Source: Acidobacteriota bacterium (GTDB lineage Bacteria > Acidobacteriota > Vicinamibacteria > Vicinamibacterales > 2-12-FULL-66-21). From it: DNA of 64,000 nucleotides. The stretch spans positions 4,505 through 68,504 of the forward strand of contig JANMCN010000240.1 in assembly GCA_031361295.1 (NCBI GenBank), read 5' to 3'. This document shows, piece after piece, positions 11,016-26,954 of the stretch; the first letter of the stretch is position 1; the number at the start of each line of letters is the position of its first letter. Below the pieces are notes generated by a model. It was not told the DNA's origin, did no database searches, and worked only from the letters and a program-made list of their open reading frames with translations. Made by a program: the position numbers and the translations under genes.

Positions 11016-11432
11016 GTGAATCTTCCGGACAGCATCCTGATCGATCTTGCGGCGGGTACGGCTGAGGGGGCTTTGCACGTCGATCCGGGCGCGGAGTACC
11101 TGCAGGATCATTTTCCCGGCGCGCCCATGCTGCCAGGGCTCCTGATGCTTGAGGTCGGCGTCCGGGTGGCGGCCGCGTTGTGGTCCGCCACGCAGCCGCC
11201 AGTTGGCGGCGCCGTGCTCGAGCACCTCGAGCGGCTTCAGGTTGTCCGGCGCGTCCTGCCTGGAGAGACTCTCCGGGTCGTCGCCGCGCGTGCGGGCGAC
11301 GGGGAGGCTGAGCCGGCCCGGGCCTGGTTCGCCGTGCGGGGAACCGTCGGAGCGGAGATGGCGGTCCGGGCGAAGTTCCGTCTCCGCGCCATCGACGCAG
11401 GCCACCGTCAGTGGGAGGGGCAGCATGCATGA
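11016..11432 (+). CDS. FabZ/FabA-like hotdog-fold (3R)-hydroxyacyl-ACP dehydratase
   Basis: Motif DHFPGAPMLPGLLMLEVG, i.e. the catalytic-His HFPG...P-G-LxxE signature of FabZ-type dehydratases. GTG start. Confidence 0.7.
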   Translation: MNLPDSILIDLAAGTAEGALHVDPGAEYLQDHFPGAPMLPGLLMLEVGVRVAAALWSATQPPVGGAVLEHLERLQVVRRVLPGETLRVVAARAGDGEAEPARAWFAVRGTVGAEMAVRAKFRLRAIDAGHRQWEGQHA

Positions 11433-11844: not shown

Positions 11845-11848
11845 GCCC

Positions 11849-12544
11849 GTGTCCGTGGCGCCGATGAGCGACGAAGACGAATCGGTTCGCGCGGTGCTGG
11901 AGGCGGCGGCCCCGTTCTTTGCCGTGCTGGCCGGGCGCCGCAGCGTTCGTCAGTTCACTGCCCAACTGCCCCCTCGCGAGCTCGTCGTGCGCGCCATCGA
12001 GGCGGCGACCCATGCGCCGTCGGGCATGAACAAACAGCCCTGGCGGTTCGTGGTGGTCTCCGACGAGGCCGTGAAGGCAGAGATGGTCACCCGCGTGAGC
12101 CGCGAGATCGAGACCATCCTGGCGCTTCTGGCCGGCGACGAGTACGCCGACAAGGTCGGGGAGTATCTCCGCAACTACGCGACCCTCTTCCGGACCGCGC
12201 CGGTGGTGATCAACGTGCTGTACCGGGAGTACGGGCAGGTCATCGCGAGCCTCCTCGGTCGATCGAACCTGCACTATCCCGACAACCAGGAGGAGGCGGC
12301 GAATCCGGCGATGCAGAGTGTATCGGCCGCCATCCAGAACCTGCAGCTCGCGGCGCACGCGGTCGGACTGGCAACGTGCTGGATGACAGCGCCGCTGTTC
12401 GCCCGGGAGCAATTGCACGACCTGCTCCAGGTCGAGTCGCCCTGGCAGCTCGCCGCGGTCATCCCCATCGGCTACGCGGCCTCGGAAAATACGAACGGGC
12501 CGAGGCGGCTGCGTCTGGACCGCGTCATCCGGTGGATCGAATGA
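11849..12544 (+). CDS. Nitroreductase-family FMN-dependent oxidoreductase
   Basis: RRSVRQFT..., HAPSGMNKQPWRFVVV and LAAHAVGLATCWM are typical nitroreductase-fold signatures. Confidence 0.8.
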   Translation: MSVAPMSDEDESVRAVLEAAAPFFAVLAGRRSVRQFTAQLPPRELVVRAIEAATHAPSGMNKQPWRFVVVSDEAVKAEMVTRVSREIETILALLAGDEYADKVGEYLRNYATLFRTAPVVINVLYREYGQVIASLLGRSNLHYPDNQEEAANPAMQSVSAAIQNLQLAAHAVGLATCWMTAPLFAREQLHDLLQVESPWQLAAVIPIGYAASENTNGPRRLRLDRVIRWIE

Positions 12545-12933
12545 TCCTCGGCACCGGCATCGACGTCGCCACGATCATCCGTGTCGAGCGTTTCCTTGAG
12601 GCGCATCGGGCTGAGCTCTCTCGGATTTTCACCGCGCGGGAACGCGCGGTGTGCGATCGGGCGCCGGCGGGGCGCCGCGCGGCCCGATACGCCGGTGCCT
12701 TCGCGGGCAAGGAAGCCGTCATGAAGGCGCTGGGTACGGGCTGGCGTTCCGACGTCACCTGGTGCGACATCGACACGCAGCCCGATGATGGGTGCGGCGA
12801 AGCGGTGCTGCTCGCCGGGGCGCTGCACGCCGCCAGGACGCAGGGCATCTCGAGGGTTCTCGTCAGTGTGTCATTGACGCGCGAAGCCGCCGTCGCGACC
12901 GCGGTCGCCGAGGGGGACGGCTGCCATGGTTAA
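12541..12933 (+). CDS. acpS: Holo-ACP synthase (AcpS-type 4'-phosphopantetheinyl transferase)
   Basis: MILGTGIDVATIIRVE..., FTARE..., FAGKEAVMKALGTG and ISVSLT-type C-terminus (VLVSVSLTRE). ATGA overlap with the upstream stop. Confidence 0.8.
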   Translation: MILGTGIDVATIIRVERFLEAHRAELSRIFTARERAVCDRAPAGRRAARYAGAFAGKEAVMKALGTGWRSDVTWCDIDTQPDDGCGEAVLLAGALHAARTQGISRVLVSVSLTREAAVATAVAEGDGCHG

Positions 12934-13627
12934 ACCGGCATTCGTGGCGTTTGCGGTGATCTCGGCCGCGACAGGCCTCCCGGGGCTGCACCGAGCGCCC
13001 GAGTCGGGCGACTGGCGCGCCGTGAGCGCCAGCTACGCGGCCGTGCGCGACTATACGGCCCTGTACGAAAAGGAGGAGCAGGCGATCTCCGGCGGCGAGC
13101 CGCAGCGCATGCACCTTTCCTTCAGAAGGCCGCTCGACGTGCGGCTCGAGTGGGTGGACGACAGCGGCAAGGCGAGCCAGATTGCCGTCTATCGTGAAGG
13201 CCACAACGGGGGCAGGCTTCTCGCACGCCGTAGCGGGGTGTTCGGGTCCCTGGTCGGGACGGTCAGCCTCGATCCGCACGACCGCCGCGCGCTCGCCGAT
13301 TCGCGTCACCCGATCACGGACGTCGGCATCGGGCACATCATCGAGAGCGCCTCACGGGCGCTGGCCGCGAACGGCGGGATCGGCCGGCCCGTCGTCGAAG
13401 ACACGCTCGATCGTCAGCCGGCGTACAGGTTCGAGTTCGTGGCCCCGCCACCCGGACTGCTCTTCGGCATACCGGGGGCTCGACGTGCCCTCGTCTGGGT
13501 CGACCGGGCGTTGATGCTGCCCGTCAGCGTGGAGATTGTCGACGAACGCGGGGCGATGCTCGAGCGGCATCGTTTTCGCGACGTCCATCTCAACAACGGA
13601 CTCACCGACAGCGTGTTTTCACTGTGA
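12926..13627 (+). CDS. Secreted DUF1571 / LolA-like (lipid-carrier fold) protein
   Basis: N-terminal signal-like segment. Pattern YTALYEKEE...G...MHLSFRRPLDVRLEW...AVYREGHNGGRLL...VSLDPHDRRALADSRHPIT recalls DUF1571. The family call comes from memory of the motif pattern only. Confidence 0.55.
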   Translation: MVKPAFVAFAVISAATGLPGLHRAPESGDWRAVSASYAAVRDYTALYEKEEQAISGGEPQRMHLSFRRPLDVRLEWVDDSGKASQIAVYREGHNGGRLLARRSGVFGSLVGTVSLDPHDRRALADSRHPITDVGIGHIIESASRALAANGGIGRPVVEDTLDRQPAYRFEFVAPPPGLLFGIPGARRALVWVDRALMLPVSVEIVDERGAMLERHRFRDVHLNNGLTDSVFSL

Positions 13628-14925
13628 AGACGATGTTCAACCGGCGGGTGGTGGTGACAGGCCTGGGCGTCGTGACACCTGTCGGCGGTGACACGGCGAC
13701 GTTCTGGGCGGCTCTGGTCGCCGGCCGATCCGGAGCGGGCCCCGTCATGGCGTACGCGACTCCGGAGCCTGCGTTGTCGTATGCGGCGGAGGTCAAGGAC
13801 TTCACGCCCGAGCGCGCCGGCCTGCCCCGCAAGCGAGTCAAGATGATGGGACGCCAGGCGCAGCTCGCGTTCGCGGCTGCCGCCCAGGCATGGCAGGACG
13901 CGGGTCTCGCCGGCGCCGGCGTGCCGCCCGGCCGCGTGGGGTTGATCCTAGGCGTCGGCATGCTCAACGCGGACGTGACGGAGCTCGGCCGCGCGTTCGA
14001 TGCCATGACGCGGGCGGGCGCCAGCGGGGAATCCGATCCGGTGTCGTTCGGACGCGTGGGCGCGCCGGAGCTCTTTCCGTTATGGCTGCTGCGCCACATT
14101 CCGAATCTCGCGGCGGCGCACGCCTCGATCGCGCTCGACGCACAGGGACCGTCCAATACGATTGCGACCGGCTGCGTCGCGGGGGCCAACGCGATCGGCG
14201 AAGCGGCGCGCCTTGTCGCGCGCGGCGACGCCGACGTGGTGCTCGCGGGCGGGACGGACGCGCGGGTGACGCCGCTCGGCACCCTGCGCTACCGGGAGCT
14301 CGGATGGCTTGCCACACGCACCGGCGTGGATCCGGTCACGGTCAGCGCACCGTTCGACGAGCACGCGTGCGGATTCGTGAGCGGCGAGGGAGCGGGCATC
14401 CTCGTGCTCGAGTCGCTGGACCACGCGCAGTCGCGTGGCGCGCGCATCGACGCGGAGCTTCTGGCGTACGCCGCCGCCAATGATGGAGGGGATCCGCTGG
14501 TGCCCAATCCGGAAGGCACTGCGCTCGAGCACGCGATTGCCCGGTGTCTCGTCCGTGCGGAACTGACGGCGGAGGCGGTCGATGCGGTGTTCGCCCCGGC
14601 CCCATCGGTGCCGACGCTCGACCGCGCCACAGCGGCCGCGCTCAGCCGCGTGTTCGGGCGCAGCGGATCCCGCGCCGGCATTACCGCCACCCGTTCGCTG
14701 CTCGGACACACACATGCGGCATCCTCGGCGCTCGATTGCGTGGCCGCCGTCCGATCACTTGGGGATGGTCGGATCCCGGCTATCGCGAACCTTCACCGGC
14801 CGGTCGCCGATCTCCCGTTCGTGCGCGGCGGCGCCCGCGCCGCGGCGGTCCGGAGCGCGGTCGTCGGGGCCTATGGGTTCGGGGGCCACGCAGCCACGCT
14901 GGTCTTCGGCGGGTGCGGCCAATGA
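13624..14925 (+). CDS. Beta-ketoacyl-ACP synthase-like protein, degenerate triad (partner / chain-length-factor-like subunit)
   Basis: KS fold (VVVTGLGVVTPVG, active-site Cys in NTIATGCVAGANAIGEA, GFGGHAATLVF). When aligned to the neighbouring KS, the first catalytic His is Pro (AVFAPAPSVPTLDRA vs YVNAHGTSTIENDRA) and the Lys before the second His is Arg (TATRSLLGH vs SSTKSMTGH). Confidence 0.8.
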   Translation: MKTMFNRRVVVTGLGVVTPVGGDTATFWAALVAGRSGAGPVMAYATPEPALSYAAEVKDFTPERAGLPRKRVKMMGRQAQLAFAAAAQAWQDAGLAGAGVPPGRVGLILGVGMLNADVTELGRAFDAMTRAGASGESDPVSFGRVGAPELFPLWLLRHIPNLAAAHASIALDAQGPSNTIATGCVAGANAIGEAARLVARGDADVVLAGGTDARVTPLGTLRYRELGWLATRTGVDPVTVSAPFDEHACGFVSGEGAGILVLESLDHAQSRGARIDAELLAYAAANDGGDPLVPNPEGTALEHAIARCLVRAELTAEAVDAVFAPAPSVPTLDRATAAALSRVFGRSGSRAGITATRSLLGHTHAASSALDCVAAVRSLGDGRIPAIANLHRPVADLPFVRGGARAAAVRSAVVGAYGFGGHAATLVFGGCGQ

Positions 14926-16226
14926 GGCGCCGGGTCGTGGTCACCGGCCTGGGCGTCGTGTCTCCCGTCGGCACGGGCCTGGAGCGTTTCTGGGACAGCC
15001 TGGTCAACGGACGGTCTGGTGTCGCACGGATTACCCGGTTCGACCCGTCGGGGCTGGCGGTCGCCATCGCCGCGGAGGTTCGCGGGTTCCGTCTGCGGGA
15101 CTACTCGGACGCGAATGAGGAGTACGTCTCCGCCGACGGCATCAGGGTGCCCCTCGACGCGCGGACGGGCTACGCGCTCGCGGCGGCGGACATGAGCATT
15201 CGCAGCGCGGGGCTGGGCGGATCCGCCGCCTGGACGGATGCTTCTATGTACCTCGGTGTCGGCGAAGGCGACAACGACCTGGCGCTGCTCTCAGAGATGC
15301 TCACACCGTGCGCCACACGGGACGGATGCGATACGGCGAAGCTCCTCTCCCGGCCCGCGCGGGCCTTCGCGGTGCGGGACCAGCTGATGGAGCCCACCAT
15401 CCCCGCCTCCCTGATCGCCGCGCGGTACGGAATCAGAGGCGAAGTCACGACCTGCCTCACGGCCTGCGCGGCGAGTGCCCAGGCGATCGGCGAAGCGGCC
15501 CGGCGGATCCAGACCGGCGAATGCGACCTGGCACTCACGGGGGGCGCCCACGCGATGACCGCCCCGCTCGACGTCATCGGGTTTGCGATGCTCTCGGCCC
15601 TGTCGTCGCGCAATGACGCGCCCGCGCGTGCCTCCCGGCCGTTCGATCGCCACCGCGACGGGTTCGTGCTCGGCGAGGGCGCGGGGATGCTGGTGCTCGA
15701 GGATGCGGATCACGCGCGGCGGCGCGGTGCGCACGTGTTCGGCGAGATCGCGGGCTACGGGTCCGCGAACGACGCCTATCGCGTGACCGACATGCATCCC
15801 GACGCCCGCGGGGCCACCGGCGCCATCGCCGCCGCCCTCCACGATGCGGGAGTCGCGCCGTCCGAGATCGGGTACGTCAACGCACACGGCACGTCGACCA
15901 TCGAGAACGACCGTGCGGAAACGCTCGCGCTCCATCGCGCACTGGGTGACGCGGCGCGCACCATTCCCGTCAGCTCGACGAAGTCCATGACCGGCCACGC
16001 GGTCGCTGCCGCGGGCGCCATCGAGATCATCGCGACCATTCTCGCGCTGCGCGATCAGCTGCTGCCGCCCACCATCAATCTCGAGACGCCGGACCCGGAC
16101 TGCGATCTCGACTACGTGCCGAACCGCGCCCGCGCCCACGTGTTCGACACCGCGCTGTCGAATTCGTTCGGCTTCGGCGGTCAGAATGTCGCACTGGTCG
16201 TCCGCCGCGAGGCGCGGACGTCATGA
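14922..16226 (+). CDS. Beta-ketoacyl-ACP synthase (FabF/KAS II-like), canonical Cys-His-His
   Basis: VVVTGLGVVSPVG, TTCLTACAASAQAIGEA, YVNAHGTSTIENDRAE, STKSMTGHAVAAAG, FGFGGQNVALVV. ATGA overlap with the upstream KS-like gene. Confidence 0.85.
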   Translation: MRRRVVVTGLGVVSPVGTGLERFWDSLVNGRSGVARITRFDPSGLAVAIAAEVRGFRLRDYSDANEEYVSADGIRVPLDARTGYALAAADMSIRSAGLGGSAAWTDASMYLGVGEGDNDLALLSEMLTPCATRDGCDTAKLLSRPARAFAVRDQLMEPTIPASLIAARYGIRGEVTTCLTACAASAQAIGEAARRIQTGECDLALTGGAHAMTAPLDVIGFAMLSALSSRNDAPARASRPFDRHRDGFVLGEGAGMLVLEDADHARRRGAHVFGEIAGYGSANDAYRVTDMHPDARGATGAIAAALHDAGVAPSEIGYVNAHGTSTIENDRAETLALHRALGDAARTIPVSSTKSMTGHAVAAAGAIEIIATILALRDQLLPPTINLETPDPDCDLDYVPNRARAHVFDTALSNSFGFGGQNVALVVRREARTS

Positions 16227-17308
16227 CGCCGCGACGCATCCTGCTGACCGGCACGGGGACGGTCGGACGCGACCTCCTCCTGGCGATGCTGCGGCGGTCG
16301 GACGACCGCGTGGCCGTCTTGATGCGCGATCGGGGAAGAAAGCCGGCGGCGGTACGCGCTCGTGCGTTGTTCGATCAGCTCGGGCTCACCGAAGAGGAGC
16401 GCGCGCGGGTGGAGGTCGTCCGGGGCGACATTCGCGCGGAGGGCTTCGAGCTCGACGCGCCGACGCAGGTCCGTCTGCAGGATGCGACCGATGTGATCGT
16501 GCACACGGCGGCGGTGACGTCGTTGACGGCGGACCGACAGTTGTGCGACGTGGTCAACCGTGACGGCACGGCCAATGCGCTGATTTTCGCCGAGCGCTGT
16601 TACCGTGTCGGGCGCCTCCAGCGCTTCATGCATCTGAGCACGGCGCTCGTCGCGGGCGCCGACTCGAGCCGGCGGGTCCAGGAGGACGCGCTGCCCGAGG
16701 CGCCGATGCACGCCAACCACTACGAATCGAGCAAGCACGCAGCCGAGCGCATCGTTCGCACGGCCATGCACGCGGGTTTGCCGGCGACGATTTTCAGGCC
16801 GAGCATGGTGGTCGGGGATTCCCTGACCGGCCGGACGCGCGACTTCAACGTCATCTACCCGCTCCTGCGGCTGCTCGCGAACGGATATCTCCCACGCTTC
16901 CCCGCTCGTCCGAACGCCCGCGTGCACCTCGCACCCCTGGACTTTGTCGTGGACGCGATTCTGCGGGCGATGGATGAGCCGTGGACCATCGGCCTGACGT
17001 TTCATCTCACCGCCCCGGAGCCGCCGACGGTGAGCGAGCTGTTCGCCTGCCGGACGTTTTTCCCCCCGGGCGCGGGACGGCCGCAGCTCTGCGACCCGGA
17101 CACCTTCGATCCGTCCGGACTCACGGCGCGCGAGCGGGAGCTGCTCGAGTCCGTGTCGTTCTGCCTGCCGTATTTCAAGTCGCGGCTCACGTTCGACACG
17201 AGCAATACCGCCAGGCTGGTGCCGCTGCCCGTGACCGACGCCGCGTTCCTCGAGCGGCTGGGCCGCTATGCGATCGAGAGCGGCTACCTGCGGACCAGCG
17301 CCGGCTGA
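16223..17308 (+). CDS. Stand-alone thioester (acyl-ACP/CoA) reductase, NAD_binding_4 / TIGR01746-like SDR
   Basis: ILLTGTGTVGRDLL, RVEVVRGDI, VIVHTAAVT, FMHLSTALV, YESSKHAAE (YxxxK), ATIFRPSMVVGDSLTGR, LAPLDFVVDAI. This pattern matches terminal reductase (R) domains. Confidence 0.75.
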   Translation: MTPRRILLTGTGTVGRDLLLAMLRRSDDRVAVLMRDRGRKPAAVRARALFDQLGLTEEERARVEVVRGDIRAEGFELDAPTQVRLQDATDVIVHTAAVTSLTADRQLCDVVNRDGTANALIFAERCYRVGRLQRFMHLSTALVAGADSSRRVQEDALPEAPMHANHYESSKHAAERIVRTAMHAGLPATIFRPSMVVGDSLTGRTRDFNVIYPLLRLLANGYLPRFPARPNARVHLAPLDFVVDAILRAMDEPWTIGLTFHLTAPEPPTVSELFACRTFFPPGAGRPQLCDPDTFDPSGLTARERELLESVSFCLPYFKSRLTFDTSNTARLVPLPVTDAAFLERLGRYAIESGYLRTSAG

Positions 17309-17322
17309 GGATCCATTCCGCC

Positions 17323-17811
17323 ATGCGTTATGTCCTCGTTGACCGTATCACCAGCCTGACGCCCGGCCGGACGCTGCGCGCGATCAAGAACGTCAGCGCG
17401 GGGGACGGGATGGTGACCCGCTACGCACCGGGGATGTGGATGTTGCCCGCCTCGATGGTGCTCGAGGCGATGGCTCAGGCCGCCGGGCTCCTGGTGATCG
17501 CGACGACCGGGGGGGCGGCACTGCCGGTTCTGGCCAAAGTCCGGCCGTTCACGGTGTTCGCGGATGCGGTGCCTGGTGATCAGGTCTGTCTCGAGGCCCA
17601 GCTCGAGGAACTGGGGCATGGCGGGTGCCGGGCCGGGGTCACAGCCGCGGTGGACGGTCGCCCGCTCGCCGCGGCGACGCTGTATCTCGCGCTGGTTCCG
17701 CTCGACGGCCCGGAGTCCGCCGCCGCGCGGTCCGCACCGCTGCGGGCTGCACTGGGGGACGCGTTCCCCGACTGGTTCGGGGCGCGCGGCATTGAGGAGG
17801 GGAGGCAATGA
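17323..17811 (+). CDS. Hotdog-fold FabA/FabZ-like protein lacking the catalytic His motif
   Basis: MRYVLVDRITSL...LRAIKNVS...MLPASMVLEAMAQAAGLL resembles the FabZ/FabA core, but the HFPG position reads RYAPGMW. Confidence 0.6.
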   Translation: MRYVLVDRITSLTPGRTLRAIKNVSAGDGMVTRYAPGMWMLPASMVLEAMAQAAGLLVIATTGGAALPVLAKVRPFTVFADAVPGDQVCLEAQLEELGHGGCRAGVTAAVDGRPLAAATLYLALVPLDGPESAAARSAPLRAALGDAFPDWFGARGIEEGRQ

Positions 17812-18827
17812 AGAAACGTTTGATGGTCCGGAATGCCCTGCGGCAGTTGAGGCATGGGTTCAACCGGCCCTTCATGGTGATGTTCGAGACGACGCTGCAC
17901 TGCAACATGAAGTGCGGGTACTGCGCGATCTGGCAGAACCAGCAACCGGAGCAGCGCGCCGTACAGGACAGGGTCTACGCGCGCATGGATGAAGCCGCGG
18001 ACTTTGGCGTGTTCGCCTGGAGCTTTTCGGGTGGGGAGCCGCTGATGAACCCCAACGTGCCTGAGTACATCACCTACGCGGCCAGGAAGGGGTTCTACAC
18101 GTCGATGCCGACCAACGGTTTGGCGCTCAAGAAGTGCGCCGAGGCGTGCGGGCAGCTCGATCAGCTCGAAGTGTCGATCGACACGCTGGATCGCGAGAAG
18201 TTCGCGCGGCGCCGCGGCATCGACGGCCTCCCGACGATTCTCTCGGGCCTCGATTACCTGCTCGGCCGCTGCGAGCACCACACGATTCAGATCAACGCCG
18301 CCGTCGATCTCGACAATCTCGAGGACCTCCCGGCCCTGGCGGCGTACTGCCAGGAGCGGGGCCTGCTGCTCCACACGGAAGCCGTCCACAACGTCGTCCG
18401 CACCACGTGGAAGACCGAGGATGTCGAGCTCGAGGCCGAGGCGCTCGACACGGTTGCCGCGTACCTGCAGGAGCTGCGCCGGAGTTACCGGTGCGTGCGC
18501 TTCTATACCGACTATTACCGGTTCTACCGGAATCAGGGTTTCACCCAGGCCTTCCCGTGCCGATCTGCATCCCATCTCGTCAACATGCGGCCGGATGGCT
18601 CGATCCAGTTCCCCTGCGCATTCGTCAACGTCCACCGCGGAGCGCCGGACATGTCGCTGCGCGAGATTTACGCGTCGGCGGAGGTGCGCAAACTGATCGC
18701 CGAATCACCGCGCATGTGGGATTTCTGCGAGGGCTGCAAGATCGGCTGTCCCTACGAAGTCTCGGCCTACCGGAACAGCCCCCTCCTGGCGCTCCGATCG
18801 GCGCTCGATTTCCTGCAGGTGCAGTGA
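17808..18827 (+). CDS. Radical SAM enzyme with C-terminal SPASM/twitch-like Cys cluster
   Basis: CX3CX2C (HCNMKCGYC), the SFSGGEPLM glycine-rich SAM motif, and C-terminal cysteines (FPCRSAS...QFPCAF...WDFCEGCKIGCPYE). Confidence 0.8.
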   Translation: MKKRLMVRNALRQLRHGFNRPFMVMFETTLHCNMKCGYCAIWQNQQPEQRAVQDRVYARMDEAADFGVFAWSFSGGEPLMNPNVPEYITYAARKGFYTSMPTNGLALKKCAEACGQLDQLEVSIDTLDREKFARRRGIDGLPTILSGLDYLLGRCEHHTIQINAAVDLDNLEDLPALAAYCQERGLLLHTEAVHNVVRTTWKTEDVELEAEALDTVAAYLQELRRSYRCVRFYTDYYRFYRNQGFTQAFPCRSASHLVNMRPDGSIQFPCAFVNVHRGAPDMSLREIYASAEVRKLIAESPRMWDFCEGCKIGCPYEVSAYRNSPLLALRSALDFLQVQ

Positions 18828-19720
18828 CCCAGACGCCTGCCGTCCGCGTGCGAGGCCTCGTCAAGGAGTATCGGGACGGGACGAAGGCGAACCGGGGCAT
18901 CGATCTCGACGTGTCTCCCGGGGAGATCCTCGCCGTCCTCGGCCCGAACGGCGCCGGCAAGACCACGTTCCTGCGTCAGCTCACGAGCGAGCTGCGCCCC
19001 ACGTCGGGCGCGATCAGCATTTTTGGCGTCGATGCCCTCGCGGATCCACAGCGGGCGAAGGGGCTCATGGGGATCTCTCCGCAGGACGCCGGCGTGTTCG
19101 AGACGCTCACCGTTCGCCTCCACATGGAACTGTTCGCGCGGCTCAAGGGACTCGACCGCGACGAGGGCCGAAAAGCCGCAGCCACCGTGATTGACGAGCT
19201 CGGCCTCGCGGGCGACGCCGACAGACGGGTCGGAACGCTCTCGGGCGGTCAGCGCCGCCGGGTCCTCGTCGGGCTTGCGCTGCTCGGGTCTCCGCCGCTG
19301 CTCGTTCTCGACGAGCCGACAGCCGGCCTCGATCCGGCCTCCCGGCGCATCCTGTGGGATGTGCTGCTCCGGGCGGTCCGCGCGGGCGCGACGGTCATTC
19401 TGTCGACGCACTACACCGAGGAAGCCGAGCGGCTGAGCGATCGGATCGCCATCATCTGTGCCGGCCGCCTCATCGCCCTGGGCACACTGCCCGAGCTCGT
19501 CGCGAGGGTCAGCGATCCGTACCGGCTCAGCTACCGCGATCCCTCGCGTGCCTTCGGTGACCTGCAGGTTCGACGCTTCGCCGCGTTTGCCGAGGTCGAG
19601 TCCGTCATCCGTGGACTCGGGCTGTCGGAATACTCGGTGGCCACCGCCTCGCTCGAAGACGTGTACTTCCAGCTCGCAGGCGCCTCGTTTCCTGTGGACG
19701 CCGTGGCGGACGCATCATGA
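18824..19720 (+). CDS. ABC transporter ATP-binding protein (ABC-2 / DrrA-like exporter)
   Basis: Walker A GPNGAGKTT, signature LSGGQRRR, Walker B LLVLDEPTAGLD, H-loop STHY. The GTG at 18824 overlaps the rSAM stop (GTGA). The upstream 230 codons of the 528-aa ORF are an out-of-frame overlap of the rSAM gene. Confidence 0.9.
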   Translation: MTQTPAVRVRGLVKEYRDGTKANRGIDLDVSPGEILAVLGPNGAGKTTFLRQLTSELRPTSGAISIFGVDALADPQRAKGLMGISPQDAGVFETLTVRLHMELFARLKGLDRDEGRKAAATVIDELGLAGDADRRVGTLSGGQRRRVLVGLALLGSPPLLVLDEPTAGLDPASRRILWDVLLRAVRAGATVILSTHYTEEAERLSDRIAIICAGRLIALGTLPELVARVSDPYRLSYRDPSRAFGDLQVRRFAAFAEVESVIRGLGLSEYSVATASLEDVYFQLAGASFPVDAVADAS

Positions 19721-20481
19721 GGCGCCGGTTCTCCGACGCGCGCTGCGTGTTTCGCATTCACCTGGCCCGTCTGCGCGCCGAGGCAGGCCCCTTCGTGCTC
19801 GCCGCGGTGATCTTCCCGGGCGTCATGTTCATGTTCGCGAACGCCGTGGGGTCCCCCGAGAGCGTCGCCCAGGCGGACCCGGCGCACCGCGTTCGGCTAT
19901 TGGCCGGCTCGGTCGTGTTCTCGCTGTCGCTCACCGCCGTGACCTGGCTCGGCTACCTCCTGCTCGAAAACCGCTTCACTGGCCGGCTGAAGCTCTTCGC
20001 GACGCTGCCGCTCGCGCCGTCGTCGTACGTGCTCGGCGTGGTGGTGTTCGCCCTCGCGCAGGGCGCCATCGCGACGATGTCGTTGCTGGTGATCGCACGG
20101 CTGATGGGGGTGCACACCGGGATCACCATGCCAGTCGGCGCCGTCCTGCTCACCGCCGTCGTCATTCTCACGGTGCTCTGTGTGTGCGGGATCGCGGTCG
20201 TCGTGGCCGCGCGCGCCCGAAGCTTCAGCGAGGGATCCCTCCTCACTGATGCACTCGGGACCGGCCTCGTGTTCCTGGCACCCGTGTACTGCGCCCGCGA
20301 ATCGCTGCCGCGCGCGCTGCAGCTGTCGTCGCCCCTCTTCCCGACCACCTACGCGGCCCGCGCGGTCAACACGGTGCTGGCCGGGGGGACTCACGTGGGC
20401 GTGGATCTGGCAATTCTGGCCGGCATGGCCGCGCTCACCCTCGCCGCCGGGTTCCATGCCATGCGGTGGCGGGAGGACTGA
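19717..20481 (+). CDS. ABC-2-type transporter permease
   Basis: About six predicted hydrophobic helices. ATGA overlap with the ATPase gene. Typical pairing with a DrrA-like ATPase. Confidence 0.75.
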   Translation: MRRRFSDARCVFRIHLARLRAEAGPFVLAAVIFPGVMFMFANAVGSPESVAQADPAHRVRLLAGSVVFSLSLTAVTWLGYLLLENRFTGRLKLFATLPLAPSSYVLGVVVFALAQGAIATMSLLVIARLMGVHTGITMPVGAVLLTAVVILTVLCVCGIAVVVAARARSFSEGSLLTDALGTGLVFLAPVYCARESLPRALQLSSPLFPTTYAARAVNTVLAGGTHVGVDLAILAGMAALTLAAGFHAMRWRED

Positions 20482-22784
20482 TGACGCCAGGCTCCGCTGA
20501 CGCCCCTCGCATTCTGATCCTGACGCTGTCGTTTGGATCTGGTCACGCCCGCGCCGCCGCGGTCGTGGCGAATGAGCTCGGGCGCCAGGCGCCGCGCGCG
20601 GACGTGCGCCTGCTGGACGCGCTGGCGGATTCCCGCCCGTGGTTCCGCGCCCTGTATGTCTGGCCCTATTGGTGGATGCTGCGGTACGCGCCAGGTCTGT
20701 GGCGCCGGCTGTTTTCGTCGCGCCTGCGTCGCCGCACGAGGCACACGGCGCCGGCATGGACGTTCCGTCATGGCTGTCCGCGCGTGTTCGAGACCATTTC
20801 CACCTTCCAGCCGGACGTCATCGTGGCCGCGGAAGTCGGGGCCTGCGAGATGGCCGTGATCGCCCGGCGGAGCGGACTCACGCCCGCGCCGATCGTGTGC
20901 CTCGTCACCGACCACCAGGCAGAGCCCGCGTGGGTGCATCCGGAAGTGACGGCATTCGCGGTGCCGACCCAAAAGGTGGCACGGCAGCTCTGTGGCTGGG
21001 GCGCGTCACGGCAGCAGATCACCACCTGCGGGATTCCGACAGCCGCCCGCTTCGCGGATGCGGCGGCCGACGGAGACGTGCGTGCCCGCTTCGGATTGTC
21101 CGACGGGCGTCCGCTCGTCCTGCTGATGGGCGGCGGGATGGGTCCGACGCGGATGGATCGGATCGCGGCCGAGCTGTGCGCGACCGGCGCAGAGATGCAT
21201 GTCGTCGCCGTGACCGGCCACGACCGGCGCGCACGGCGCCGGCTTGCCCGCGTCTCGGGCCACGGTCGCGCCTCGATCCACGTGGAAGGGTGGATCGACG
21301 ACATCGCCTCGCTGATGCGCAGCGCCGACCTGCTCGTGACGAAGCCGGGCGGTGTCACGTCCGCCGAAGCGGCTCTCTGCGGCGTTCCCTGTGTGTTGTT
21401 CGATCCGATCCCCGGGCCGGAAGAGCGGAATGCCGCGCACCTGGCAGACCAGGGCGCCGCCCTCCTCGTCTCAGGAGCCCCCGCGACCGCCGCCGCGGTG
21501 ACGGCCCTCCTCGGTGATGCCCCCCGGCGCGCGGCAATGGCCGCTCGCGCGCGTGAGCTTGCGACGCCGGCTGCCACGCAGGACGTCGCGGCACTGACGC
21601 TGCGGGCGTGCCGTGAGGCGCACGACGACGAAGGTCGTCCTGTGCTCATCCTGGCGATCCGCAATGGTGCGGGTCACTTGAGGGTCGCCGAAGCGATCGC
21701 CCAGGCCATCGAGGTCGAGGCGCCTGCCGCGCGGGTCCGCATCGTCGACGTCGCCGACCACATGACGCCGCTGACCCGTGCCACGCACGTGACCATTTAC
21801 CTGTGGCTCGTGCGGTATGCGCCCTGGCTCTGGGCACGCATCGACCGGTACCAGAAGCGGCAGTCGCAGACGAGCCCTGCGTGGTATTACCGGCGCGGCT
21901 GCCGGTCCCTGTTCGATCTGGTGCGTGGCGTCCGCCCGCGCGCCCTGGTCGCCACGGAAGTGGGCTGCTGCGAAGTCGCGGCGCTCGTGAAGCGCGATCT
22001 CCTGCCCGCGTGTCCGCTCGTGGCCGTCAACGGGGAGTACGACGCAGATCGGGCCTGGATCCAACCGGAGGTGGACGCCTACTCGGTCGCCACCGACGAT
22101 GTCGCCGACGAGTTGTGCGCGCTCGGCGCGGAGCGATCGCGCGTGCACGCCTGGGGCGTGCCGATTTCGCCGGAGTTCGAGCTGGCGCCGTCGCCGTGTT
22201 CGGATCGCGAACATGCGCGGAGGCGGCTTGGACTCGATCCGCGTCTCCCGATGATCCTCGTCGGGGGAGGCAGCGAGGGGCTGGGGCGTCCCGACCTGAT
22301 TGTCGGAGGTCTGCTGAATGCGGGGTCGTCGCAGATTGCCGTGCTGACGGGCCGCAATCGCGAACTGAAGCGCCGTTGCGACGCGCTGGCGCGCGCGCAC
22401 GGACCCGGCCGACTCCGCGTGGTCGACTGGACACCCGCCATCGCCGACTGGATGCGCGCGGCGGACCTCTTCGTCACGAAACCCGGCCACACGTTTGACG
22501 AGGCGCTGTCGAGCGGCCTCCCGCTCGTCTCCCTGCCGCCCCCGCCCGGATCCGAATGGGTGCAGTACCGGCTGCTCGACACGTGGAATGTGGGCCGTGC
22601 GGTCCGTACCCGCGACGAACTGGTGAAGGTCGTCACGCGGCTCATGTCGCAGCCTGACGAGCTGACCGCCATGCGACAGTCGGCGCGCACACGCAGCCGG
22701 CCGGGCGCGGCGCCGGCCGTCGCGCGCTGGGTGCGTGCCGCCCTGGCGCGTCCGCAGGTCGTTGACGCGGGGTTGGTGTCATGA
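20466..22784 (+). CDS. Tandem-duplicated GT28 (MGDG-synthase / UgtP-like) glycosyltransferase, two complete modules in one polypeptide
   Basis: Module 1: ILILTLSFGSGHARAA...LLVTKPGGVTSAEAALCGVP. Module 2: VLILAIRNGAGHLRVA...LFVTKPGHTFDEALSSGLP. The modules are collinear over their whole length. The start could be the ATG at 20481 (TGATG overlap with the permease stop). Confidence 0.8.
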   Translation: MAGGLMTPGSADAPRILILTLSFGSGHARAAAVVANELGRQAPRADVRLLDALADSRPWFRALYVWPYWWMLRYAPGLWRRLFSSRLRRRTRHTAPAWTFRHGCPRVFETISTFQPDVIVAAEVGACEMAVIARRSGLTPAPIVCLVTDHQAEPAWVHPEVTAFAVPTQKVARQLCGWGASRQQITTCGIPTAARFADAAADGDVRARFGLSDGRPLVLLMGGGMGPTRMDRIAAELCATGAEMHVVAVTGHDRRARRRLARVSGHGRASIHVEGWIDDIASLMRSADLLVTKPGGVTSAEAALCGVPCVLFDPIPGPEERNAAHLADQGAALLVSGAPATAAAVTALLGDAPRRAAMAARARELATPAATQDVAALTLRACREAHDDEGRPVLILAIRNGAGHLRVAEAIAQAIEVEAPAARVRIVDVADHMTPLTRATHVTIYLWLVRYAPWLWARIDRYQKRQSQTSPAWYYRRGCRSLFDLVRGVRPRALVATEVGCCEVAALVKRDLLPACPLVAVNGEYDADRAWIQPEVDAYSVATDDVADELCALGAERSRVHAWGVPISPEFELAPSPCSDREHARRRLGLDPRLPMILVGGGSEGLGRPDLIVGGLLNAGSSQIAVLTGRNRELKRRCDALARAHGPGRLRVVDWTPAIADWMRAADLFVTKPGHTFDEALSSGLPLVSLPPPPGSEWVQYRLLDTWNVGRAVRTRDELVKVVTRLMSQPDELTAMRQSARTRSRPGAAPAVARWVRAALARPQVVDAGLVS

Positions 22785-23497
22785 CCGGGCACCACGAAGG
22801 CCTCCTCGCGCTCTCGGTGGTCGGCAGCGCCACGATCGCTGCGGGGTACTGGGCGTCGTACGGCGTACGCAGCCAGTGGCTCGGCCCGACCGACTGGCGG
22901 GGCCGGACGGATGGCGAGGCGCTTGCGCTGACGTTCGACGACGGGCCTGCGGACGACACCGAGCGGATACTCGACACGCTGAAGCGATTGAACATCCGCG
23001 CGGCGTTCTTCATGCTGGGCCGACAGGTCGAGCGATATCCGCACATCGCCCGGCACGTCGTCGACGCCGGCCACGAAGTCGGGAACCATTCGTACTCGCA
23101 CCCGCTCTACCTGTATTGCGGAACCGATCGCATTCGCCGCGAGCTTCAGCGCACCCAGGCGGTCATCGAGGACGTCACCGGAGTCAGGCCCGTCTGGTCA
23201 CGGCCGCCGTGCGGCGTCCGCTCGCCCGCCTATTTCGCCGCGGCGACGGAGCTCGGCCTGCGGACGGTGCAGTGGTCGGTGGCCGGGTATGACTGGAAGC
23301 CACGGTCGGCGCCCGCGATCGCGCACGCAGTCGCACGCGGTATGGCTCCGGGCGCCATCGTGCTGCTCCATGACGGCGACAGCGCCGGACAGCGGGACCG
23401 ACGCGAGACCGTCGCGGCGCTCCCGGCGATCGTCAGCGACGCGACATCCCGCGGCTTGTCGTTCGCCCCCCTCTCCACTCTCCTGGGGACATCCTGA
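22781..23497 (+). CDS. Polysaccharide deacetylase (CE4 / NodB homology domain)
   Basis: LTFDDGP, GHEVGNHSYSHP and WSRPPCG, with an N-terminal TM segment. ATGA overlap with the GT28 gene. Confidence 0.85.
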   Translation: MTGHHEGLLALSVVGSATIAAGYWASYGVRSQWLGPTDWRGRTDGEALALTFDDGPADDTERILDTLKRLNIRAAFFMLGRQVERYPHIARHVVDAGHEVGNHSYSHPLYLYCGTDRIRRELQRTQAVIEDVTGVRPVWSRPPCGVRSPAYFAAATELGLRTVQWSVAGYDWKPRSAPAIAHAVARGMAPGAIVLLHDGDSAGQRDRRETVAALPAIVSDATSRGLSFAPLSTLLGTS

Positions 23498-24192
23498 TGC
23501 ATTCACCGGCGCTTCGAGGCGGGTTGGCCGTGTTTCTCGATTTCGATGGAACCATCTCCACCTCCGACGTGGTCGACGCGATGCTCGAGACGTACGCGGA
23601 TCCCGCCTGGGCATCGGTCGAGGCCGAGTGGCGGGCCGGCCGCATCGGATCGCGCGCATGCCTCGATCGGCAGATTGCGCTCGTCAGGGCGTCGACCGAC
23701 GACATGGACGCCTTGATCGACTCGATCGCGATCGACGACGGGTTCGTGGCGCTGCTGGAGGCGTGCGATCGCGCCGGCGCGCCGGTGCACATCGTGAGCG
23801 ACGGCTTCGACTACTGCATCCGGCGCATCCTCGCCCGCGCGGCGCCGCGCCACGAGCGGCTCGTTCGGGGGCTGACCATCTCCGCGAGCCATCTGGAGCC
23901 TGAACGTGAGCTCCGGTGGCGCACGGCGTTTCCGTTTCCCGCCGTGACGTGCGAGCACGGCTGCGCCACCTGCAAGCCGGCGATGATGCGCGCCATCGCG
24001 CCCGCCGGGGCGCATACCGTCTTCGTGGGGGACGGATTGTCGGACCGCTACGCGGCGGCCCACGCCACGACCGTCTTCGCCAAGGCGTCGCTCGCGGAGT
24101 ACTGCGCGGATCGCGCCATCGCTCATACCCGGTTCGACACTCTGGGCGACATCGCGGCCTGCATCGATCGAGACATTCGCATTCGCGCCTGA
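23497..24192 (+). CDS. HAD-superfamily subfamily IB phosphatase (MtnX / phosphoserine-phosphatase-like)
   Basis: FLDFDGTIS (DxDxT) and VFVGDGLSDRYAA (GDGxxD). The cap region contains Cys residues (CEHGCATCKP), as in MtnX-like proteins. Confidence 0.7.
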   Translation: MHSPALRGGLAVFLDFDGTISTSDVVDAMLETYADPAWASVEAEWRAGRIGSRACLDRQIALVRASTDDMDALIDSIAIDDGFVALLEACDRAGAPVHIVSDGFDYCIRRILARAAPRHERLVRGLTISASHLEPERELRWRTAFPFPAVTCEHGCATCKPAMMRAIAPAGAHTVFVGDGLSDRYAAAHATTVFAKASLAEYCADRAIAHTRFDTLGDIAACIDRDIRIRA

Positions 24193-24204
24193 GCGCGGGG
24201 GAAC

Positions 24205-25623
24205 ATGACGACAAACCCGACAGACCTGCTGCAGATGACCCGTATAACGGACGAGCGCGAGCTGCTCGACATGGAGCGGAAGTACTGCTCCTGGGGCGAC
24301 ACCGTGCACTATCTCGAGCCTCCGAAGTTCTTCGCTCGCGCCGAGGGCCACTACCTGTTCGACAGGGCCGGGGTTCCGTACCTGGACCTGCAGATGTGGT
24401 ACTCGGCGGCAAGTCTTGGCTACGGCAACCAGCGCCTCGAGACCGCGCTGACCGATCAACTCCACAAGCTGCCGCAGCTGGCCTCCCAGTATCTGCATCC
24501 TGAAAAAGTCCAGCTCGCCGCGGCAATCGCGCGGCTGAACGAGTCGAAGTTCGGCCTCGAAGGGCGGGTCCATTTCAATGTGGGCGGCTCCCAGGCGGTC
24601 GAGGACGCGCTGAAGATCGTACGCAACGCGACAGGAAAAAATCTGGTGTTCGCGTTCATGGGGGGCTACCACGGCCGGACGCTCGGCGCCTCGGCGATCA
24701 CGTCCAGTTACCGGTACCGGCGGCGCTATGGCCACTTTTCCGATCGGGCGCATTTCGTGCCGTTCCCGTATTGCTTCCGCTGCCCCTATGACAAGAAGCG
24801 CGAAGATTGCGGCCTCTACTGTGTGAAGCAGTTCGAGAAGAATTTCGAGACCGAGTACAACTCGTTCTGGGACGCCAAGGCCGGAGAGCCGGAGTTCTCC
24901 GCCTTTTTCATGGAGGCCATCCAGGGCACGGGCGGTTACGTCATCCCGCCGCCCGAGTACTTCCCCGCGCTCAAGAAGGTGCTCGACGAGCGGGGGATCC
25001 TGCTGGTGGACGACGAGATCCAGATGGGATTCTACAGGGCCGGAAAGTTCTGGGCCGTCGAGAACTTCAACGTCGAGCCTGACATCATCGTGTTCGGCAA
25101 GGCGCTGACGAACGGCCTGAACCCCTTGTCGGGAATCTGGGCGCGGGAGGAACTGATCAACCCGGGTGTCTTTCCCCCTGGCTCGACGCACTCCACGTTT
25201 TCGTCGAACACGCTCGGCACCGCGGTCGGCCTCGAAGCCATCCGCATCATGCTCGAGACCGATTACGAAGACCTGGTCCAGCGGAAGGGCGCGTATTTTC
25301 TCGCGCAGCTCAAACAGCTGCACAAGAAGTTCCCCATGGTGATCGGCGATACGGACGGCATGGGACTGGCGCTGCGGATGGAGATCTGCCAGCGCGACGG
25401 CTACACCCCGGACCGCGAGCTGACCGACAAGATGTTTGCCGAGGGGATGAAAGGCGATCTCGACGCGCCCGCAGGCCGCATGGGCCTCGTGTTGGACGTG
25501 GGAGGCTATTACAAGAACGTGTTCACGCTGGCCCCTGCGTTCACGATGACCGAGGCAGATATCGACCTAGCGGTGGAGTTGCTGGAACAGCTGATCCGCC
25601 GCTGCGCTCCGGACCGGGTGTGA
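24205..25623 (+). CDS. Class III (omega-type) PLP-dependent aminotransferase
   Basis: GGSQAVEDALK, FMGGYHGRT, LLVDDEIQMGFYRAGKFWA and IIVFGKALTNG (Schiff-base Lys context). Confidence 0.85.
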   Translation: MTTNPTDLLQMTRITDERELLDMERKYCSWGDTVHYLEPPKFFARAEGHYLFDRAGVPYLDLQMWYSAASLGYGNQRLETALTDQLHKLPQLASQYLHPEKVQLAAAIARLNESKFGLEGRVHFNVGGSQAVEDALKIVRNATGKNLVFAFMGGYHGRTLGASAITSSYRYRRRYGHFSDRAHFVPFPYCFRCPYDKKREDCGLYCVKQFEKNFETEYNSFWDAKAGEPEFSAFFMEAIQGTGGYVIPPPEYFPALKKVLDERGILLVDDEIQMGFYRAGKFWAVENFNVEPDIIVFGKALTNGLNPLSGIWAREELINPGVFPPGSTHSTFSSNTLGTAVGLEAIRIMLETDYEDLVQRKGAYFLAQLKQLHKKFPMVIGDTDGMGLALRMEICQRDGYTPDRELTDKMFAEGMKGDLDAPAGRMGLVLDVGGYYKNVFTLAPAFTMTEADIDLAVELLEQLIRRCAPDRV

Positions 25624-26954
25624 TGCTCTCACGCCTCGTCGACAGGATTGAAGGAGCCGCGCTGCGGACGGCACCGTCCGCAGCCGCGCGCCTGATGGGC
25701 GCTCTCCCGTCCGGCGCCCTCCCGGCCCTGCAGCGGGCGCGGTTCCGCCGGACGCTTCGGCTCGCGTCCGAGCGCGCGCCCTTCTACCGGGACCAGTTCC
25801 GCCGCCGCGGCATCCGCGTGGACACGATCGAGCATCCCTCCCAGCTGGGAGACTTCTTCACCACGGGTGACGATCTGCGCACCAACCCGGCCAGCGCGTT
25901 CCTCACCGGCCGACCGGACACCGCGTTCGAGACGACGGGGACGACCTCGGCGATTCCCAAGCGGGTGTTCTTCTCTCACGGTGAGCTGGACGCCATGGGC
26001 ACCGCGAGCGCGGCCGCACTGCACCTCCTCGGCGTACGGGAGAACGACACCGTGCTGAGCGCGTTCGACTGCTCGTTCTGGGTGTCCCCGGCGGTGGCGC
26101 GCTCAGCGCTCCAATATCTCGGATGCTTTCACGTCGAAGCCGGAAAGATCGATCCGCAGGAGTGCTATCTGCATGCCGTGCATTACCGCCCGTCCATCAT
26201 TTTCGGCGAGCCGTCCTGGCTCGTGCGATTCGCGCAGGTCGCCCGGGCCAGCGGAACCTGGCCTGTCAAACTCCTCCTCGGCGGCGGCGAGAACATGGCG
26301 GAGACCGCCCGAGCGGAGGTCGAGCGTGTCTGGCAGGCGCCGCTGTATCTGAACTACGGGCAGACGGAGGCGTTCGGATCGCTCGGCCTGGAGTGTCGCG
26401 AGCGCGCCGGATATCACCGGAACGATCTCCATTTCCTGTTCGAGGTCGACGGTGCGGACGCGGATGGCTGGGGCGAGCTGACGTATACGACGCTGACGCG
26501 CGACGTGATGCCGCTCATTCGGTACCGGGCCAGTGACATCACCCGCCTCGTGAACGAGCCGTGCGCGTGCGGTCTCTTTGCCGGGAGACTCGCCAGGATC
26601 CGGGCGCGGGCGGACGAAATGGTTGTCTGCGGCATGGGCAATGTCGGCCCGTGGGTATTCGATGAGCTGCTTCGCGGAGTGATCGGCCCTGCGGATGAGT
26701 GGCAGGCCGTCGTCGGCAGCGACGGGCAGCTCGATGCCATCGAATTGAGCCTCGAGACTGACGGCTCGCGCGCGGTTGACGGCCTGGTTCGCGACAACCT
26801 CCGGGAGCGCTTTCCGGACTTCTGGAAAAACCTCCAAATGGAGCTGTACAGCCTGCGCATTTCGCCGGTTCCCCCAGGCTCCCTGCGCCATGGCCGCAAG
26901 CTGCGCCGGATTGTCGATCGCAGAGATCAGGTGAAGGCCACGGCTCCGGGATAG
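25620..26954 (+). CDS. PaaK-like adenylate-forming enzyme (phenylacetate-CoA ligase / F390 synthetase family)
   Basis: ETTGTTSAIPKRVFFS (a TSGTTGxPK-like AMP motif), YGQTEA and RYRASDIT. The length (~444 aa) fits the short PaaK-type ANL enzymes. Confidence 0.75.
   Translation: MMLSRLVDRIEGAALRTAPSAAARLMGALPSGALPALQRARFRRTLRLASERAPFYRDQFRRRGIRVDTIEHPSQLGDFFTTGDDLRTNPASAFLTGRPDTAFETTGTTSAIPKRVFFSHGELDAMGTASAAALHLLGVRENDTVLSAFDCSFWVSPAVARSALQYLGCFHVEAGKIDPQECYLHAVHYRPSIIFGEPSWLVRFAQVARASGTWPVKLLLGGGENMAETARAEVERVWQAPLYLNYGQTEAFGSLGLECRERAGYHRNDLHFLFEVDGADADGWGELTYTTLTRDVMPLIRYRASDITRLVNEPCACGLFAGRLARIRARADEMVVCGMGNVGPWVFDELLRGVIGPADEWQAVVGSDGQLDAIELSLETDGSRAVDGLVRDNLRERFPDFWKNLQMELYSLRISPVPPGSLRHGRKLRRIVDRRDQVKATAPG

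Follow-up and report, generated by a model that had tools for sequence, protein, structure and literature searches.

A conserved phosphatase, class III PLP enzyme and PaaK-like ligase cassette in an acidobacterial lipid-type operon keeps different partners from the neighboring thioester reductase

The window analyzed here is a stretch of 64,000 nucleotides from an Acidobacteriota bacterium (assembly GCA_031361295.1, contig JANMCN010000240.1), with a G+C content of ~68%, in a source genome of 4.9 Mb that is 98.9% complete. The closest relatives of the proteins it encodes carry Vicinamibacterales or Acidobacteria labels. On the forward strand, positions 11016-26954 hold 17 tightly packed genes that form one operon, and the order of these genes is also seen in other genomes. 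Four of them are the subject of this study: a stand-alone, thioester-reductase-type short-chain dehydrogenase/reductase (SDR), hereafter the reductase; a HAD-IB phosphatase; a class III pyridoxal-phosphate (PLP) enzyme, hereafter the aminotransferase; and a PaaK-like adenylating ligase. Their family matches are all far above chance. A preliminary description of this DNA placed the reductase directly after a pair of ketosynthase (KS)-like genes and the aminotransferase between the phosphatase and the ligase, and proposed that the reductase releases an acyl chain as an aldehyde, which the aminotransferase then converts to an amine. The gene identities stand, as borne out for the latter three genes by matches to PF00202, TIGR01488 and PaaK-like families, whereas the central, aldehyde-then-amination step does not. 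The reduce-then-aminate route is unlikely because the two enzymes keep different partners in related genomes. The operon is an uncharacterized variant of specialized-lipid pathways, and an amine-bearing, glycosylated lipid is a plausible product.

The reductase itself is readily assigned. It matches PF07993 (NAD_binding_4) at 156.4 bits against a cut-off of 20.1 (E 9.7e-46), and its top-scoring NCBIfam model is the thioester-reductase domain TIGR01746, although the score of 134.6 bits falls below the cut-off of 213.35. Among solved structures, the MxaA reductase domain is the best match; the reductase domain of a type I polyketide synthase (PKS), that of Mycobacterium Nrp and a carboxylic acid reductase are also among the nearest. 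The GTGTVG motif is found at residues 10-15 and YESSK at residues 167-171, while the Ser-Thr part of the catalytic triad aligns with that of MxaA. The ATG start codon overlaps the stop codon of the preceding KS gene (ATGA). On these features the protein looks like a thioester reductase and not like a ketoreductase or an epimerase, the identities that the preliminary description had regarded as damaging to its own proposal. The enzyme probably reduces an acyl chain bound to an acyl carrier protein (ACP), either to the aldehyde or to the alcohol.

To determine the company that these genes keep, relatives of the aminotransferase were collected from a set of species-representative genomes, in which at least 579 stretches, from several phyla, encode one. 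From at least 599 matching stretches, 80 loci with an aminotransferase 68-86% identical to that of the window were fetched, and all 17 operon proteins were mapped onto them. These loci span the Acidobacteriota (Vicinamibacterales, Blastocatellia/Pyrinomonadaceae, Terriglobia, Chloracidobacterium and Thermoanaerobaculia) as well as Planctomycetia, Omnitrophota, Auribacterota, Methylomirabilis and Gemmatimonadaceae. Partners were counted in the 45 fetched loci with at least 8 kb of DNA upstream of the aminotransferase gene. The phosphatase is present in 44 of the 45, the ligase in 43 and the reductase in 4. The phosphatase, aminotransferase and ligase genes are referred to below as the cassette.

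The reductase is also missing from cassette-carrying genomes as a whole, two of them 99-100% complete. A near-identical operon in another member of the Vicinamibacterales (G061, aminotransferase 85% identical) runs hotdog 1, ACP, AcpS, DUF1571, KSa, KSb, hotdog 2, radical SAM and on through the remaining genes; relative to the window operon, it lacks only the nitroreductase and the reductase, and no more than 42 nt separate KSb from hotdog 2. Whole-genome searches of four cassette carriers (G061, G062, G063 and G065) found no reductase homologue at E <= 1e-10. The same holds at E <= 1e-20 for G144, a cassette carrier that is 99% complete, while in the 100% complete carrier G194 the sole match is 29% identical, lies elsewhere in the genome and is not an orthologue. 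This last genome is also without the entire block from hotdog 1 to hotdog 2.

Within the cluster, the reductase is found in three other genomes (G020, G204 and G309), one of which, G204, is collinear with the window over the operon except that no AcpS gene was detected. Here, the gene travels with that of the nitroreductase: the two are both present in 4/4 clusters (the window and these three genomes) and both absent in 1/1 (G061), counts that come from a small sample of related genomes (the window and loci L094, L098, L099 and L100). The close orthologues of the reductase, 55-79% identical, are acidobacterial; one source assigns one of them, P0321, to Pyrinomonas methylaliphatogenes. More distant homologues (~40% identity) occur in two types of cluster, one in Omnitrophica with the order SDR, methyltransferase, hotdog, ACP, KS, KS, reductase and family 2 glycosyltransferase (GT2), and the other with ACP, KS, KS and radical SAM genes followed by the reductase and several glycosyltransferases. 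Neither type contains an aminotransferase, HAD or ligase gene. The reductase is best read as an accessory tailoring enzyme that goes together with the nitroreductase. As separate observations, the nitroreductase is 75-85% identical among the carriers, and the Pyrinomonas-like loci L094 and L100 (from G204 and G309) have no AcpS match between the nitroreductase and DUF1571 genes, where the window and G020 have one.

There is good chemical precedent for the aldehyde-to-amine proposal, in which the reductase would release the ACP-bound chain as a fatty aldehyde, class III transamination would give a fatty amine, and N-acylation by the ligase and glycosylation would follow. In coelimycin-type actinobacterial polyketide alkaloids (PMC5365063) and in the TamH fusion of tambjamine biosynthesis (PMC9594044), a reductase and a transaminase always co-occur or are fused. 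As in those systems, the window combines a thioester-reductase-type SDR and a class III PLP enzyme with carrier-protein chemistry in a single, translationally coupled biosynthetic operon, and its aminotransferase is neither of the housekeeping nor of the sugar type. However, where co-occurrence or fusion is universal in those pathways, the window reductase is stand-alone, is partnered with a nitroreductase, is found in less than a tenth of the loci counted and has homologues in clusters without an aminotransferase. Nor is there any sign that the aminotransferase has specialized where a reductase is present: no alignment column is fixed in reductase-positive and absent from reductase-negative clusters, and the two groups resemble each other (mean identity 80.3%) no less than the reductase-positive clusters resemble one another (78.7%). 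The proposal also leaves the phosphatase, the invariant partner, without a role, and the active site of the aminotransferase, discussed below, retains a carboxylate-binding arginine while missing the flipping arginine used by amine transaminases. Taken together, we give the aldehyde-to-amine route little credence.

Two other roles can be considered for the reductase. That it is the missing ketoreductase of the elongation cycle is unlikely because the reductase-less operon of G061 has no substitute SDR and because the best matches are thioester reductases. The second comes from the heterocyst glycolipids, where reductive release yields a fatty alcohol that is subsequently glycosylated. This is a model for the reductase alone, and it is similar in that the distant reductase homologues sit between a KS pair and glycosyltransferase genes. 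It differs in being a type I system, whereas the window encodes discrete, type II proteins, and the GT28 genes of the latter remain in clusters that lack the reductase.

The features of the operon are collected in Table 1. The GT28 pair is encoded as one protein of 772 residues in the window, and in relatives as two genes of 393 and 398 residues (for example, L001 5983-8357).

Table 1. Genes of the operon at 11016-26954, with the matches that identify them (G numbers denote related genomes; aa, amino acids)
Feature	Position	Strand	Evidence and remarks
Hotdog (FabZ-like) protein 1, at the start of the acyl-chain module	11016..11432	+	Weak FabZ match; same position in G020, G204, G309 and G061
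Long ACP, 139 aa	11425..11844	+	PP-binding and ACP models; orthologues in related clusters 65-74% identical
Nitroreductase-family flavoprotein	11849..12544	+	PF00881, E 2.4e-36; co-varies with the reductase
AcpS-type phosphopantetheinyl transferase	12541..12933	+	PF01648, holo-ACP synthase models
DUF1571 (LolA/RseB-like) protein	12926..13627	+	PF07608, E 4.9e-24; also present in Omnitrophota and Planctomycetia clusters
KSa, KS-like subunit a (divergent FabF)	13624..14925	+	Ketoacyl-synt domains; FabF model 301 bits, below cut-off
KSb, KS subunit b (FabF-like)	14922..16226	+	FabF model 450 bits; above PRK07314 subfamily cut-off
Reductase, stand-alone thioester-reductase-type SDR, read as accessory, 361 aa	16223..17308	+	PF07993
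Hotdog (FabZ-like) protein 2	17323..17811	+	FabZ models, ~61 bits
Radical SAM enzyme	17808..18827	+	PF04055; 74-85% identity in acidobacterial clusters
ABC-2 exporter, ATPase and permease (two genes)	18824..20481	+	PF00005, PF01061
Fused tandem GT28 (MGDG-synthase-like) glycosyltransferase	20466..22784	+	Two MGDG_synth stretches
CE4 (NodB-type) deacetylase	22781..23497	+	PF01522, E 2.3e-36
HAD-IB phosphatase, directly upstream of the aminotransferase	23497..24192	+	TIGR01488 above cut-off; DFDGT
Aminotransferase, class III PLP enzyme of a distinct, highly conserved family, 472 aa	24205..25623	+	PF00202
PaaK-like adenylating ligase	25620..26954	+	Matches to DVU_1553 family, PaaK and FlxY, all below cut-off; matches PaaK structures

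The aminotransferase belongs to a family of its own. It matches PF00202 with 231 bits (E 2.7e-68) and lies below every NCBIfam cut-off, the best model scoring 266.6 bits against a cut-off of 552. In an exhaustive search of representatives, the family forms one tight cluster at 893 bits. Next come fragments of family members, with 522 bits or less, and then the nearest full-length non-member, with 419 bits; generic class III proteins reach no more than ~220 bits. A quick, and hence provisional, maximum-likelihood tree with branch support from the Shimodaira-Hasegawa-like approximate likelihood-ratio test (SH-aLRT) recovers the family as monophyletic, in a clade of 19 rows behind a branch with an aLRT value of 100, and apart from GabT, ArgD, HemL and the PRK05769-type enzyme. 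In addition, the source genome has separate ArgD, HemL and PRK05769-type genes elsewhere, each above its own cut-off. A housekeeping role as ArgD, GabT or HemL is consequently rejected, and the protein does not group with DegT-type sugar enzymes either; placement with either kind of enzyme is what the preliminary description had named as evidence against itself. A search for fusions in which a longer protein combines the aminotransferase with a reductase, ACP, HAD or ligase returned none at E <= 1e-80, which is weak evidence, and the gene contexts of the nearest relatives outside the family (P0124, P0127 and P0128, on short contigs) gave no functional lead.

The aminotransferase shares 65-86% identity among Acidobacteriota, Planctomycetia, Omnitrophota, Methylomirabilis and Gemmatimonadaceae, a level of conservation that fits one common small substrate. 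The occurrence of the cassette is patchy, as it is found in 2/61 close relatives and in 5/301 high-quality genomes of a sample of the phylum. Patchy occurrence combined with such high identity between phyla suggests that the cassette has spread horizontally under strong constraint.

The active site was compared in an alignment of 69 family members with E. coli GabT and the source genome's own paralogues. The PLP lysine (Lys299), Asp270, Gln273 and Thr331 are invariant in 69/69 members, as in transaminases. Invariant in the 69 as well is Arg158, the arginine of an HGR motif, which corresponds to GabT Arg141, the residue that binds the substrate carboxylate. In contrast, the two positions of the GabT Glu211/Arg398 switch (residues 242 and 441) are both threonine in 69/69 members. 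In GabT this switch recognizes the alpha-carboxylate of glutamate and 2-oxoglutarate; the wider clade also lacks the pair, and the lack of the switch arginine sets the window enzyme apart from the coelimycin-type and TamH aminotransferases. A basic loop with four arginines (residues 170-181) is invariant in the family, and a CxxC...CxxxC insertion is common to a wider group of class III proteins. The conserved residues would be better suited to a small substrate that is polar and anionic than to a plain fatty aldehyde.

As the Glu/Arg switch is lost, the family may not consist of classical transaminases, and the type of reaction may differ. One explanation along these lines is that the protein is a racemase, lyase or decarboxylase of the same fold that would act on a phospho-amine or an amino acid. 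The uniform replacement of both switch residues is consistent with this, as is the finding that the best solved matches are archaeal amino-acid racemases and that models for the PbfA lyase and for racemases are among the top NCBIfam matches. Yet all of these matches are weak (267 bits or less, below cut-off), and the PLP lysine and the three accompanying residues are those of transaminases, so that a non-transaminase, suggested by sequence likeness, seems quite improbable. A partial match (149 bits) was also obtained to the structure of PigE of prodigiosin biosynthesis (PDB 4ppm), which we take to be a comparable reductase-aminotransferase fusion.

The two constant partners of the aminotransferase were placed by motif and model scores. 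The phosphatase carries DFDGT as its DxDxT nucleophile motif and scores 59.8 bits against the HAD-IB model TIGR01488 (cut-off 45), while the MtnX equivalog gives 98.5 bits against a cut-off of 292. Among the HAD cap types, the IB class acts on small substrates. The aminotransferase and ligase genes overlap (GTGA). The ligase scores 144.9 bits against the DVU_1553 family (cut-off 300, E 2.9e-42) and 111.7 bits against the PaaK equivalog (cut-off 646); it matches PaaK structures with an E value of 1.5e-35 and is PaaK-like in fold only.

The surroundings of the cassette change from group to group. In Planctomycetia and Omnitrophota the order is ACP, KSa, KSb, HAD, aminotransferase and ligase. Genes for a reductase, GT28 and radical SAM enzyme are missing; nearby are FabG-type SDRs, hotdog proteins, GT2, a hexapeptide acyltransferase, BacA and an LPG_synthase_TM protein. 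In Terriglobia, optional radical SAM and CE4 genes are followed by ACP, KS, GT28, ligase, HAD and aminotransferase, and nine loci have no radical SAM gene within 10 kb. In 17 acidobacterial loci, mostly from Blastocatellia/Pyrinomonadaceae and called Blastocatellia-type here, the order is radical SAM, ABC, ABC, GT28 (one or two), CE4, HAD, aminotransferase and ligase, with no KS or ACP gene nearby. Five genomes of this type (three of them among the 17 loci) were searched for KSa and have no orthologue, since their best matches are 33-37% identical and FabF-like. In Methylomirabilis, Gemmatimonadaceae and Thermoanaerobaculia, the order is HAD, aminotransferase, alpha/beta-hydrolase, ACP and KS.

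Some further details of these loci were noted. The alpha/beta-hydrolase variant is represented by L070 (9162-15403), L074 and L078, which have no PaaK-like ligase nearby, and in L070 genes for MipA, EamA and a DegT-type protein follow. In some Blastocatellia-type clusters (L026 6336-8443; L007, L009, L014 and L022), GT28 and CE4 are separated by genes for a DegT/DnrJ/EryC1 sugar aminotransferase and for an NAD-dependent epimerase/dehydratase; the same clusters have a B12-binding radical SAM gene with DUF4070 downstream of the ligase. The Auribacterota contig L046 (17-7870) has an open reading frame of 2617 residues directly upstream of the ligase, HAD and aminotransferase genes.

The adjacency of ACP, a KS pair or single KS, aminotransferase and ligase in Planctomycetia, Omnitrophota and Terriglobia brings to mind an on-carrier amination of the kind known from cispentacin and mycosubtilin. 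Here, the ligase would load a carboxylate starter on the ACP, the KS pair would extend it and the class III enzyme would aminate an ACP-tethered oxo (beta-keto) intermediate, giving an amino-acyl chain. The cispentacin proteins AmcB-H (PMC10698177) comprise the same kinds of gene products from one operon, namely an ACP, an adenylate-forming loader, a KS heterodimer, a hotdog protein and a class III aminotransferase that acts after carrier-bound steps. In addition, the invariant basic loop of the window enzyme could dock an acidic ACP. Several observations go against this explanation: the Blastocatellia-type loci keep the cassette without a dedicated ACP or KS nearby, with KSa orthologues in 0/5 of the genomes searched; the Amc models score below cut-off and below the FabF and FabZ models; and the Amc set has no HAD, glycosyltransferase or exporter. 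Nor does on-carrier amination account for the phosphatase that is always adjacent. On balance, on-carrier amination appears rather unlikely.

The distribution of the glycosyl genes bears in a similar manner on sugar amination. Class III enzymes aminate C-6' in aminoglycoside pathways, and in the acidobacterial clusters the GT28, CE4 and radical SAM genes adjoin the cassette; the radical SAM enzyme could thus oxidize a sugar hydroxyl of a glycolipid and the class III enzyme aminate the resulting keto or aldehyde sugar. However, Planctomycetia and Omnitrophota keep the aminotransferase without GT28, CE4 or radical SAM, and the nine Terriglobia loci mentioned above lack the radical SAM gene. The dedicated DegT-type enzyme that some clusters already have, together with its epimerase/dehydratase, likewise speaks against a sugar-aminating role of the class III enzyme. 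This role is regarded as highly improbable.

We favor, tentatively, a different explanation, in which the operon is put together from three separable modules, one of which makes and couples a small, probably phosphate-derived, amine unit, with the reductase as an accessory. The modular arrangement, the partner statistics and the features of the active site are direct observations. The substrates and the order of steps we infer from gene partners and motifs, and the independence of the aminotransferase from the reductase is much firmer than the part of the explanation that names substrates. Module A (11016-17811: hotdog 1, ACP, nitroreductase, AcpS, DUF1571, the KS pair, reductase and hotdog 2) would assemble a dedicated acyl chain on an ACP belonging to the module. 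Module B (23497-26954: HAD-IB phosphatase, class III PLP enzyme and ligase) is the invariant, cross-phylum core and functions where the reductase is absent. Module C (17808-23497: radical SAM, ABC-2, two GT28 domains and CE4) would glycosylate, de-N-acetylate, otherwise modify and export the lipid. A few acidobacterial lineages would have acquired the reductase and the nitroreductase jointly; there, the reductase would give rise to a variant of the chain and would not feed the aminotransferase.

Three steps are proposed for module B. In the first, the PLP enzyme would aminate a small carbonyl compound that bears a phosphate, of the type of dihydroxyacetone phosphate or acyl-dihydroxyacetone phosphate. 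This compound would be drawn from central metabolism, as suggested by the lack of a conserved kinase or dehydrogenase in the cassette. In the second, the phosphatase would strip the phosphate and leave a unit of the amino-alcohol type, to which, in the third, the ligase would couple a carboxylate (the acyl chain or an ACP-loaded starter) at the expense of ATP. The constant presence of a DxDxT phosphatase beside the PLP enzyme, together with the lack of a conserved kinase or dehydrogenase, makes this scheme of amination, dephosphorylation and coupling the most economical one.

Parts of the scheme have parallels elsewhere. Histidinol and serinol formation proceeds by amination followed by dephosphorylation (histidinol-phosphate aminotransferase and its phosphatase; RtxA), and thus couples an aminotransferase to a HAD phosphatase to turn a keto-phosphate into an amino alcohol. 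This is a resemblance only, as the aminotransferases involved are of other classes than the class III enzyme of the window, and we know of no link between these systems and lipid synthesis. For the coupling step, the OlsH/OlsI ornithine-lipid pathway of planctomycetes (PMC12493201) is similar in that an adenylating enzyme, the ATP-dependent OlsH, could N-acylate an amine with a fatty acid, and an alpha/beta-hydrolase gene lies beside the cassette in the Methylomirabilis-type variant. OlsH is GH3-like, in contrast to the PaaK-like ligase of the window, and the pathway needs neither an aminotransferase nor a phosphatase because its ornithine comes from primary metabolism.

A number of points weigh against the three-module explanation. 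Gene partners and motifs are the only guide to its substrates, and its first step would be affected if, as the lost Glu/Arg switch allows, the PLP enzyme is no classical transaminase. The loci compared are kin and the metagenome-derived genomes among them may be incomplete, so that the counts overstate their independence. The reductase and the aminotransferase do share the operon of the window, and a lineage-specific side use of a reductase-made aldehyde may exist. Finally, the phosphatase could act on a lipid phosphate instead of on the product of the aminotransferase.

The three-module explanation can be extended to a particular product, which we offer as an improbable but specific suggestion: the cassette would make a serinol-type amino-alcohol backbone from dihydroxyacetone phosphate or its acyl ester, and this would take the place of glycerol in an outer-envelope glycolipid with an amide linkage. 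If true, a serinol-type backbone would represent an unrecognized class of lipid that extends across Acidobacteriota, Planctomycetota, Omnitrophota, Methylomirabilota and other double-membraned phyla, to which, in a few lineages, the reductase and nitroreductase would contribute a variant with an alkyl or reduced chain. A full-text literature search on the gene combination and on Pyrinomonas lipids found no paper that assigns the cassette a product.

The case also bears on how gene clusters are read. In cluster mining, a thioester reductase and a class III aminotransferase are often taken as an amine-forming pair, which can be misleading if each gene is part of a different mobile module. What is actually conserved as a unit here is the phosphatase, the atypical class III PLP enzyme and the PaaK-like ligase. 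Identifying the product of this cassette would probably bring to light an as yet unknown lipid in the envelope of bacteria that are abundant in soil and groundwater, and would also give a function to an enzyme family without the usual carboxylate-recognition switch.

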